This document shows positions 43,345 to 44,085 of a stretch of DNA of 64,000 nt, piece by piece. Below the pieces are notes generated by a model. The model searched no databases. It worked only from the letters and a program-made list of their open reading frames with translations, and was not told the DNA's origin. The first letter of the stretch is position 1. Each line of letters starts with the position of its first letter. The position numbers were made by a program, and so were the translations under genes. The stretch is from a virus: IMG/VR virus record IMGVR_UViG_3300039008_000031, positions 1-64,000 of that record, one strand, 5' to 3'.

Positions 43345-44085
43345 ATGACCTTGAAAACTTTCAATTCTCGTCCTGTTACGATCAATGCGATCCAATGGAC
43401 TGGGGAAAATGCGGAAAACATTTATGACATCTTCCGTGCAATGGGTATTGAAGACGTGATGCACATCAGCTTGGGTGAGTTCCAAGATCGTGTGGATTGT
43501 GCTGGAAATGCTATTCCCTGCCAATCGGCAACCGGGGAAGTATATGCCCAAGAGGGTATGTACATCATCTTCAACGGTGTAGATGACATCTATCCTTGCC
43601 CTGAAGAGACTTTCCTGAGCAAGTACACGGAACAGACCCCTTCGATGGGTCTGGACCTAAAAACGATGCCTGTGGCACCTCTCTCGTATTATGGCACCAA
43701 ACGTGTCCATGCTTGGCCTCACCAAAAAGGCGAAGAAGAAGGGTACGCTGTGGAATACGAGGACGGCTACATTAGCTGGTCCCCGAAAGATGTCTTTGAG
43801 GCAACATACCAACCCACCACAGCCATGAGTTTTGGCCATGCCATTGTGGCAATGAAAACTGGTTATCGTGTTGCTCGGGCTGGTTGGAACGGCAAAGGCA
43901 TGTTCCTGTTCAAAGTAGCAGGCAGCCAGTTTGAAGTGAACCGGGAACCGCTGAAATCCATTCTGGGTGAAGGTACCGTGGTGAACTACCTGACGCATTA
44001 CGATATGCGGACGGCAGATGGTTCTATCGTTCCGTGGCTCTGCTCTCAGGCAGACATGGACGCAGATGATTGGTTGATTGTCTGA
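43345..44085 (+). CDS. Three-domain protein ending in a DUF2829 (Tad2-like) domain, inserted between the two polymerase ORFs
   Basis: The C-terminus is [31 protein letters not shown]...[21 protein letters not shown], which has the DUF2829-type GWNGKG ... PW..SQ.D...DW pattern. The N-terminal segments (AIQWTGEN...[35 protein letters not shown]) resemble small phage beta-barrel domains. Confidence 0.6.
   Translation: [246 protein letters not shown]

Follow-up and report, generated by a model that had tools for sequence, protein, structure and literature searches.

A three-module Tad2-like protein encoded between the two pieces of a split DNA polymerase in an N4-like phage

The stretch of DNA analysed here, referred to as the window, comprises 64,000 nucleotides (nt) of the IMG/VR virus record IMGVR_UViG_3300039008_000031 (positions 1 to 64,000) and covers most of the genome of an N4-like podovirus, whose closest relatives are Rhodovirinae roseophages and whose virion RNA polymerase is encoded in an open reading frame (ORF) of 3398 amino acids (aa) on the minus strand. 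On the plus strand, an ORF with an ATG start at positions 43345-44085 codes for a protein of 246 aa, which we term P0001. Its gene interrupts a family-A DNA polymerase in the fingers, between motifs A and B, and is thus enclosed by the two polymerase pieces polN and polC (Table 1). The stop codon of polN (TGA, 43332-43334) overlaps the Shine-Dalgarno sequence GAGGA of the inserted gene, whose own stop codon (TGA, 44083-44085) shares its A with the ATG of polC at 44085 in the arrangement TGATG. A preliminary description of the locus had noticed a translational coupling to replication genes, which is borne out by the overlap of stop and start but was understated, as both neighbours are pieces of one and the same polymerase. 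The protein encoded at this site carries a C-terminal Tad2-like domain, which is preceded by two further small modules.

Table 1. Features at the polymerase locus of the window and, in the last row, in contigs of its relatives (labelled L).
Feature	Position	Strand	Description
Terminator-like hairpin, strong	39944..39973	+	13-bp stem, then T run; before helicase gene
polN, DNA polymerase piece 1, 684 aa	41280..43334	+	exonuclease, thumb, palm motif A, first fingers part
polN C-terminal tail, 38 aa	43218..43331	+	without counterpart in intact polymerases of cultured relatives
Ribosome-binding site GAGGA	43333..43337	+	read from sequence; overlaps polN stop, 7 nt before ATG
P0001 module 1, PGDYG-like small β-barrel with three-helix insert	43345..43644	+	aa 1-100; AlphaFold2 model
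P0001 module 2, SH3/Tudor-like barrel	43657..43824	+	aa 105-160; typical of N4 gp49-like DUF2829 proteins
P0001 module 3, Tad2-like/DUF2829 domain	43825..44085	+	aa 161-246 plus stop; Pfam, PDB sequence and fold matches
P0001 pocket positions	W181 N182 G183 M221 T223 D225 V229 W231 L232 S234 A236 D237		alignment
polC, DNA polymerase piece 2, 252 aa	44085..44843	+	motif B, remaining fingers, palm motif C
polC N-terminal head, ~20 aa	44085..44144	+	absent from intact polymerases of cultured relatives
ORF of 55-69 aa	L002:302-502; L004:541-750; L005:5813-6004; L008:3935-4126; L020:3723-3890

The presence of DUF2829 in the last ~85 aa, as claimed in the preliminary description, is confirmed by the Pfam profile PF11195 ('Tad2-like'), which matches residues 161-246 of P0001 over its entire length (1-73 of 73 positions) with an E-value of 7.1e-23 and a score of 81.4 bits (cut-off 25). 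A phmmer search of PDB chains retrieved the solved family members ModTad2 (9eib, 8v3e), SptTad2 (8wjd), HgmTad2/AcrIIA7 (8kbi) and SPO1 Tad2 (8sme/8wje) with E-values ranging from 2e-15 to 5e-11, and the identity of P0001 to these proteins amounts to 36-44%. In the AlphaFold2 model of P0001, which was obtained from 62 sequences with a mean predicted local distance difference test score (pLDDT) of 88.6, the chain is organized in three compact units connected by low-confidence linkers, with pLDDT values above 90 in the Tad2 region. The third unit (161-246) superposes on ModTad2, SptTad2, HgmTad2 and SPO1 Tad2, with a best Foldseek E-value of 3e-8 to 8wjd, template modelling scores by target of 0.69-0.89 and, in VIA comparisons, Z-scores of 11.4 to 9eib_A (root-mean-square deviation 3.0, 85 residues aligned) and 10.3 to 8kbi_A. 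The whole protein has no match in NCBIfam, and a tblastn search of the window found no second copy of DUF2829.

The relationship extends to the ligand binding site. For its comparison, we have mapped the residues lining the pocket for glycocyclic ADP-ribose (gcADPR) in SPO1 Tad2 (W25 N26 I63 T65 D67 H71 W73 S76 T78 D79; 10.1101/2023.05.01.538930) and in HgmTad2 (W21 N22 G23 M76 V84 W87 L88 S90 T92 D93; 10.1101/2023.11.15.567273) onto P0001 via HMMER alignments. Ten of the 12 mapped positions are identical to SPO1 Tad2 or HgmTad2. All of W25, N26, T65, D67, W73, S76 and D79 of SPO1 Tad2 are found in P0001, its I63 is replaced by M221, which equals M76 of HgmTad2, and G23, V84 and L88 of the latter protein are identical. 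Judged from these alignments, the gcADPR pocket is mostly retained, with one base-contacting residue changed. The preliminary description had named the lack of a profile match and the loss of pocket residues known from Tad2 structures as findings that would speak against its proposal; instead, the match is strong, the predicted structure resembles that of known Tad2 proteins and the pocket is largely preserved.

Similar to Tad2 proteins of known structure, P0001 is predicted to assemble into a tetramer. The predicted complex of four copies of residues 100-246 scores 0.81 compared to 0.12 for the best control, and among proteins of known structure, 20 of 30 same-chain pairs and one of 23 single chains attain this mark. 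The runs agree in at least 91% of contacts, with partner pLDDT values of at least 85, and the predicted contacts follow helix α1 (161-171) and the strands between residues 213 and 230, as in Tad2 tetramers. Since the predictor may remember the solved Tad2 tetramers, this score documents likeness rather than binding.

The two further small domains at the N-terminus postulated in the preliminary description are real, with residues 1-100 and 110-158 both mostly modelled at pLDDT values above 90. Its emphasis on the size of P0001 (246 aa compared to ~90 aa in stand-alone Tad2) is justified with respect to length but not with respect to the middle barrel, as the combination of this barrel with a Tad2 domain is common: the layout is found in ~2600 proteins of ~140 aa in a set of 5.8 billion, which resemble gp49 of N4. 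Consistently, residues 104-246 are matched by N4 and hundreds of phage records and phrog_872 covers residues 125-246 with an E-value of 5e-40. Only the extra N-terminal module sets P0001 apart as rare. Unit 2 (about 110-158) consists of a four-stranded barrel and a helix, and its closest VIA matches, over ~47 residues, are the RNA polymerase-interacting domain of Mfd (Z 4.9), CarD (Z 4.7) and the C-terminal Tudor domain of UvrD (Z 4.6), values (Z 4.5-4.9) which indicate only a generic common fold.

Module 1, if predicted alone, reaches a pLDDT of 89 and a predicted template modelling score of 0.79. A search of 1.84 billion representatives yielded 50 relatives at E≤1e-3, most of which are phage proteins of 83-107 aa that stand alone and share the signature G-D-Y-I-I ... 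Y-P-C ... F ... Y, and the module also matches phrog_1810/419, a group of unknown function. The Pfam family PF14083 (PGDYG) is matched by six of 43 members of the module 1 family, with a best E-value of 0.0035 that is below the cut-off, and P0001 itself shows no match in the gathering-score test of this profile, pointing to a relation that is distant at most. A profile search of PDB sequences returned nothing below an E-value of 0.36, Foldseek no match at E≤0.001 and a wide VIA search only SH3/Tudor-like PDB rows with weak Z-scores of up to 3.2. Shape searches of the ESM Atlas place the fold of unit 1 ahead of PF24729 (Acb2_Tad1_hairpin), DUF551 and WDGH domains and, with the Atlas's own model, also ahead of Sequestin (PF21825), which we regard as leads only. 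Modules 1 and 2 can be described, on the level of models, as confidently folded small SH3/Tudor-like barrels. An identity of either module with Acb4 was considered and rejected, as PF13876 was found neither in the whole of P0001 at E≤0.01 nor in 43 relatives of the N-terminal module at E≤0.1 or 23 relatives of the middle module at E≤10, in searches where HMMER filters may hide very weak matches. Likewise, an origin of the two modules by internal duplication was dismissed, with homology not being shown by an hhalign probability of 6% over a 27-column C-terminal motif.

The conservation of the protein is manifested in the ratio of nonsynonymous to synonymous substitution rates (dN/dS), which was determined from pairs of metagenomic orthologues with dS values of 0.4-1.1. 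In the comparison of L002 with L004, this ratio is 0.24 for the N-terminal module, 0.08 for the middle module and 0.055 for the Tad2 domain, and between L005 and L123 it is 0.31 for the N-terminal module and 0.047 for the Tad2 domain. In these orthologues, all three modules are under purifying selection, and with ratios in the range of 0.05-0.3 all three parts are thus maintained. Across relatives, the Tad2 domain, with identities to the window of 85, 74, 69 and 60%, follows polC with identities of 72, 76, 63 and 59%, consistent with a long co-inheritance of the two.

The split of the polymerase becomes evident in comparison with cultured relatives. PF00476 matches residues 448-634 of polN with an E-value of 1e-24. 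In an alignment to the 872-aa polymerase of Roseobacter phage RD-1410W1-01, which is contiguous, polN shows 73% identity to residues 1-641 of this enzyme and polC 70% identity to its residues 638-870, and motif B is intact in polC of the window (44187-44231). All ten cultured Schitoviridae polymerases that we have examined are single coding sequences, and in the roseophage records listed the matches to the cores of polN and polC abut. The alignment of polN to the intact polymerase ends at residue 646, and its tail, in which Y-F-H, E, E-Y, G and G are invariant, is kept in all split relatives, whereas a tblastn search of a phage collection with 44 aa of the tail gave no match at E≤1. The head of polC is conserved in all split forms, and its N-terminal sequence M-L-x-I is kept in six split relatives. 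In a separate observation, the contiguous family-A polymerase of L164 (400-800) was found to contain ~35 residues whose homologues make up the first half of the polN tail and the last part of the polC head. L164 would thus represent either the ancestral form before the split or a product of re-fusion. Since part of both elements is present in this unsplit protein, tail and head may not come from a mobile element and may, at least in part, constitute a lineage-specific insertion in the fingers within which the split arose. In a phylogenetic tree of polN, the order of the window, the intact polymerase of RD-1410W1-01 and two split clades is not resolved, and an approximately unbiased test did not reject a single clade of all split forms (p 0.316); the split may have arisen once or have been gained several times by transfer.

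About 40 metagenomic relatives share the split, and the nesting of a Tad2-like gene between polN and polC was found in contigs from Logan, JGI and IMG/VR in searches seeded with P0001 (L002-L005, L008/9, L019, L020, L048 and L123/4). In an unbiased scan for metagenome contigs containing the end of polN including its tail (alignment A5), we identified 33 loci with the tail and, among 23 fully present split junctions, 13 with and ten without a Tad2-like gene. Junctions of the latter kind are diverse: a spacer of only 10-130 nt is found in L137, L159 and L182, the first codons of a Tad2-like gene are all that is left in L140, L125 contains a lone 88-aa member of the module 1 family (hhalign probability 97%), in L151-153 module 1 is fused to something else (99.6%), and L139, L148 and L149 contain other small ORFs. 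Where a Tad2 domain is present, it is preceded by modules 1 and 2 in the window and in L002-4, by module 1 alone in L005 and L123, by a part resembling module 2 in L019, L020, L127 and L128 and by a zinc-ribbon-like extension in L048. Since its residents vary or are absent among relatives, the junction is a cargo hotspot and, as it holds either Tad2-like genes, other small genes, HNH homing endonucleases or nothing, P0001 is cargo and not part of the polymerase, which to judge from these contigs clearly has no need for a Tad2-like protein. P0001 itself looks like a fusion of two usual residents of the junction.

Two further observations concern the same region. In several relatives, an ORF of 55-69 aa, which is absent in the window, is located between polN and the Tad2-like gene (Table 1); it has no Pfam match and its start (F-S-F-[DE]-E-A ... 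G) resembles helix α1 of Tad2. In L142 and L145, a tailed polN and a Tad2-like gene are followed only by a 26-residue match resembling polC.

The window contains neither a homing endonuclease between positions 43335 and 44084 nor any interruption of polC. In contrast, genes of NUMOD4+HNH_3 endonucleases are located downstream of the Tad2-like gene in L005, L020 (which equals contig L134), L138 and L129, and in L008/L009 the Tad2 domain is interrupted, exactly at its G-W-N-G loop, by an in-frame HNH_3+AP2 endonuclease. The flanks of L005 and L008 are 93-96% identical, with the difference confined to these endonuclease cassettes. This pattern argues for homing endonucleases as repeated visitors of the polymerase junction, and it is plausible that they are at the origin of the polymerase split, the junction of the window itself being free of them; relatives of the L005 endonuclease adjoining this polymerase were not found in IMG/VR. 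As a side observation, the insert in L008 (4491-5031, also in L009) adds ~179 codons between G-W-N-G and M-F-I-F to yield a continuous ORF of 364 aa (P0054), does not contain intein blocks and is missing in the near-identical phages L005 and L123.

The presence of an endonuclease coincides with an interruption of the DNA coding for motif B of polC, which is found in all four distinct endonuclease-bearing contigs compared to none of 26 without endonuclease. The interruptions are located at or near the Thr codon of F-A-L-T/Y-Q-G. In L005 (7225-7275), an insert of 43 nt comprises a 10-bp GC stem with a UUCG loop, a lower stem of 5 bp and an A-rich stretch, is flanked by matching ACT Thr codons and introduces a stop two codons past the first ACT. 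At the same codon, L129 (4735-4778) carries an unrelated insert of 37 nt between ACT and ACA, which forms a GC hairpin of its own. Both L020/L134 (5050-5060) and L138 (5125-5135), whose assembly was separate, contain one extra C after TTT, three codons upstream. Exact-match searches of metagenome and viral contigs did not find the hairpin gap of L005 elsewhere. The gaps are candidates for a translational bypass as in gene 60 or a +1 frameshift, which would protect the target site of the endonuclease, and their recurrence makes assembly errors or defective genomes less likely. Bypass elements of the T4 type have so far been reported only from topoisomerase genes of myoviruses (10.1101/2022.08.31.505936).

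With respect to expression, the genes of the helicase, polN, P0001, polC, exonuclease and primase are probably transcribed together since, from the hairpin preceding the helicase gene until past the primase, we found no comparable terminator on the plus strand; a scan of the window also showed no excess of sigma-70-like sequences separating these genes. Further downstream, a 98-aa ORF (44840-45136, plus strand) is placed between polC and a gp42-like exonuclease, which in RD-1410W1-01 and L002 directly follows the polymerase. This ORF has no Pfam match at E≤0.01, and its sole match is a weak one to phrog_12273 (E 0.0017), whose function is unknown. The window also contains 23 sites of the 9-mer AAACCAARG, compared to 2.2 expected from shuffled sequences, mostly on the plus strand and just upstream of genes (e.g. 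at 9963, 29261, 35304 and 37514). At 43325, ahead of the inserted gene, the corresponding sequence is AAACCAATG, which does not match the 9-mer exactly.

Together, these features suggest that P0001 is a Tad2-type anti-defence sponge which is made with the replisome, a proposal to which we assign a probability of about 0.6. As an accessory protein encoded as cargo in a split polymerase gene, it would be translated from the replication operon and, since polC starts on its stop codon, be made whenever, and in about the same amount as, the polymerase. Its C-terminal domain would assemble into a tetramer and sequester a small immune signal that the host derives from nucleotides, most likely an ADP-ribose-derived product of a TIR protein such as gcADPR, and would thereby prevent the activation of a Thoeris-like system or another defence based on signalling. 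The SH3-like barrels would constitute add-on modules, and polN and polC would re-form the enzyme by non-covalent association, to which the conserved tail and head would contribute. The documented fusion of Tad2 with other sponge domains (10.1101/2025.07.12.664507) adds weight to this proposal. On the opposite side, the Thr that contacts adenine in SPO1 Tad2 (T78) and HgmTad2 (T92) is Ala 236 in P0001 and the water-coordinating H71 of SPO1 Tad2 is Val 229. Similarly, the pocket of HgmTad2 for cyclic dinucleotides (R31, S47, F70 and N85) is not kept: in the alignment to 8kbi, R31 is replaced by Val, the position of N85 is deleted and the β2-β5 insertion is ~16 residues shorter, and coverage of the cyclic oligonucleotide-based antiphage signalling system (CBASS) by P0001 is therefore not predicted. 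The ligands of the Tad2 family include gcADPR, His-ADPR, N7-cADPR, cCMP/cUMP and cyclic dinucleotides (10.1101/2025.08.24.671296; PMC13133391), and one member binds tracrRNA (PMC13133391), which leaves the gcADPR of Thoeris as only one candidate. N-terminal additions can change activity, since the head of AcrIIA7 blocks RNA binding (PMC13133391), and the Tad2-like gene is dispensable in at least some settings, as ten of the 23 junctions lack one. All of these points weigh against the proposed function.

Other explanations of the locus have to be considered. The inserted gene could be a selfish or neutral leftover of a homing cassette that is of no benefit to the phage and persists only as its precise excision from an essential gene is unlikely, in line with the described HNH endonucleases at the junction (L005, L020/L134, L138 and L129) or inside the Tad2 domain (L008/L009) and with the loss of the cargo in some lineages (L140). 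We consider this unlikely in view of dN/dS values of 0.05-0.3 over three modules at dS values of 0.4-1.1, the conserved pocket residues, the intact start and ribosome-binding site with its downstream coupling and a Tad2 domain that across relatives is at least as conserved as polC. The exact placement of the gene between the two pieces and its translational coupling to polC would fit an accessory or assembly factor that bridges or chaperones the two pieces or, via its SH3/Tudor-like barrels, tethers them to another part of the replisome, as would the resemblance of module 2 to Tudor-like domains docking to RNA polymerase (Mfd, CarD and UvrD, at Z-scores of only 4.5-4.9) and the split polymerase with an added processivity subunit described in another phage family (PMC13648687). 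However, the same tail and head flank junctions that lack a gene (L137, L159 and L182), keep only a remnant (L140) or contain small genes of unrelated kinds (L139, L148 and L149), proteins combining module 2 with a Tad2 domain are common in phages with intact polymerases, where they are encoded far from the polymerase gene, and the fold matches are generic, rendering such a role quite improbable.

A function as RNA-binding anti-CRISPR of the AcrIIA7 type, with a tracr or guide RNA bound in a basic groove and the N-terminal modules serving as regulatory lid, would account for the presence of 9kzr and HgmTad2 (8kbi) among the sequence and fold matches, would find a precedent in the N-terminal head of AcrIIA7 that gates RNA binding (PMC13133391) and would agree with the annotation of several phage homologues as 'anti-CRISPR protein'. 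These annotations are transferred names though, the nearest solved relatives are ModTad2 and SptTad2 with 9kzr being the weakest match (E 4e-10), the insertion forming much of the extended domain of AcrIIA7/HgmTad2 is missing in P0001, its small-molecule pocket is kept under strong selection and HgmTad2 was without anti-Cas9 activity in the hands of another group (10.1101/2023.11.15.567273), all of which makes this function very improbable. Finally, the interruption could be removed from RNA as a group I intron or from protein as an intein, complete or split, to give a single polymerase chain, and the ORF would then be a gene borne by that element. In this respect, polN and polC share a frame, the insert (43218-44141, 924 nt) is a multiple of three and the head of polC ends with H-N in several relatives. 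By eye, the tail of polN loosely resembles the N-terminal strand of an intein. Split inteins flanking free-standing endonucleases are found in metagenomic 'fractured genes' (PMC2677866). Nevertheless, the region 42900-44500 showed only chance-level matches to Rfam at E≤10 and none to an intron family, and with just 10 nt ahead of the ORF and no nucleotide behind it, there is no room for an intron core. The frame of the inserted ORF differs from that of the polymerase, in which stops are encountered, and polC has its own conserved start (M-L-x-I). In the tail and the head, which together comprise ~60 aa and thus less than half a Hint domain, Pfam detects neither Hint nor intein profiles at E≤10. 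Neither junction contains a conserved Cys, Ser or Thr; H-N is followed by Val and is replaced by H-D in L019 and L048. The removal of the interruption by splicing is therefore extremely improbable.

The proposal of a Tad2-type sponge could be carried further, with the junction as dedicated counter-defence slot coupled to the replisome, module 1 as undescribed signal-binding or anti-defence domain and P0001 as sponge with two or three heads. Module 1 occurs alone in L125 and also in L151 at the same slot, and elsewhere ahead of other sponge-type domains, but we regard this extension as doubtful. If P0001 is a working sponge, the Tad2 family would extend to marine N4-like phages of roseobacters, and the protein would offer a natural three-module form for probing add-on domains, bearing in mind that the Sequestin family was itself found via fusions. 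The locus clearly exemplifies how an accessory gene may be embedded in a gene essential for replication and be coupled to its translation, and it illustrates that the site of a polymerase split can accommodate accessory genes over long periods. The junctions of relatives, whether empty, filled with cargo or with endonucleases, and with or without gaps, provide natural comparisons for studies of polymerase reassembly, homing and recoding.

In comparison with known systems, the C-terminal 86 residues of P0001 belong to the same sequence family as the Tad2 sponges (SPO1 gp34.65, 8sme/8smf; 9eib; 8wjd; 8kbi), with which they share helix α1 and a five-stranded sheet, the G-W-N-G loop and the pocket motif W-x-x-S-x-x-D, and the predicted tetramer uses the same contact elements. 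Different from these ~90-aa proteins, P0001 has 246 aa with two barrels ahead of helix α1, an Ala in place of the adenine-binding Thr, no cyclic-dinucleotide insertion as in HgmTad2 and a gene that lies in a split polymerase gene. The N4 gp49-like DUF2829 proteins of phages and prophages (phrog_872, ~140 aa), for which we have found no tested function in the literature, align end to end with residues 104-246 at identities of 35-53% in cultured phages and 60-73% in metagenomic sequences, but they lack the PGDYG-like first module and are encoded by ordinary free-standing genes. The joining of small domains in one chain is reminiscent of multi-domain sponges such as Acb4-Tad2 of Pasteurella phage Pm86, Tad2-Sequestin and Acb4-Sequestin (10.1101/2025.07.12.664507), although in Pfam scans the extra modules of P0001 match neither Acb4 (PF13876) nor Sequestin (PF21825). 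An N-terminal add-on is also found in pdAcrIIA7 (9kzr), where a flexible head of 48 residues allows the Tad2-fold core to form a tetramer, which binds tracrRNA after removal of the head (PMC13133391); this head has no detectable relation to the modules of P0001, which also lacks the extended domain.

The closest parallels to the gene arrangement are nrdA of Aeromonas phage Aeh1, which is split by mobE and whose NrdA fragments were shown experimentally to reassemble through tail and head (PMC3045599), and the topoisomerase genes 39/60 of T4 with mobA and a 50-nt bypass (10.1101/2022.08.31.505936). As in polN and polC, an essential replication enzyme is encoded in two genes with a conserved extra tail and head and, in relatives of the window sharing the polymerase split, an HNH endonuclease at the junction is combined with a short hairpin coding gap in the second piece, which parallels the mobA/gene 60 cassette. 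Here, the target is a family-A polymerase of N4-like podoviruses, the gene at the junction is of an anti-defence type and the window itself contains neither endonuclease nor gap. Family-A polymerases in two ORFs were also reported for other marine phages, such as an uncultured cyanophage lineage (10.1101/325100), which belong to a different phage group. Tad2 proteins, sponge fusions, N-terminal add-ons, genes in pieces made by endonucleases and split phage polymerases are thus already known. The three-module architecture of P0001, its location inside the polymerase and the junction as recurrent cargo slot in an uncultured N4-like branch, of which our literature search did not find any description, are new.

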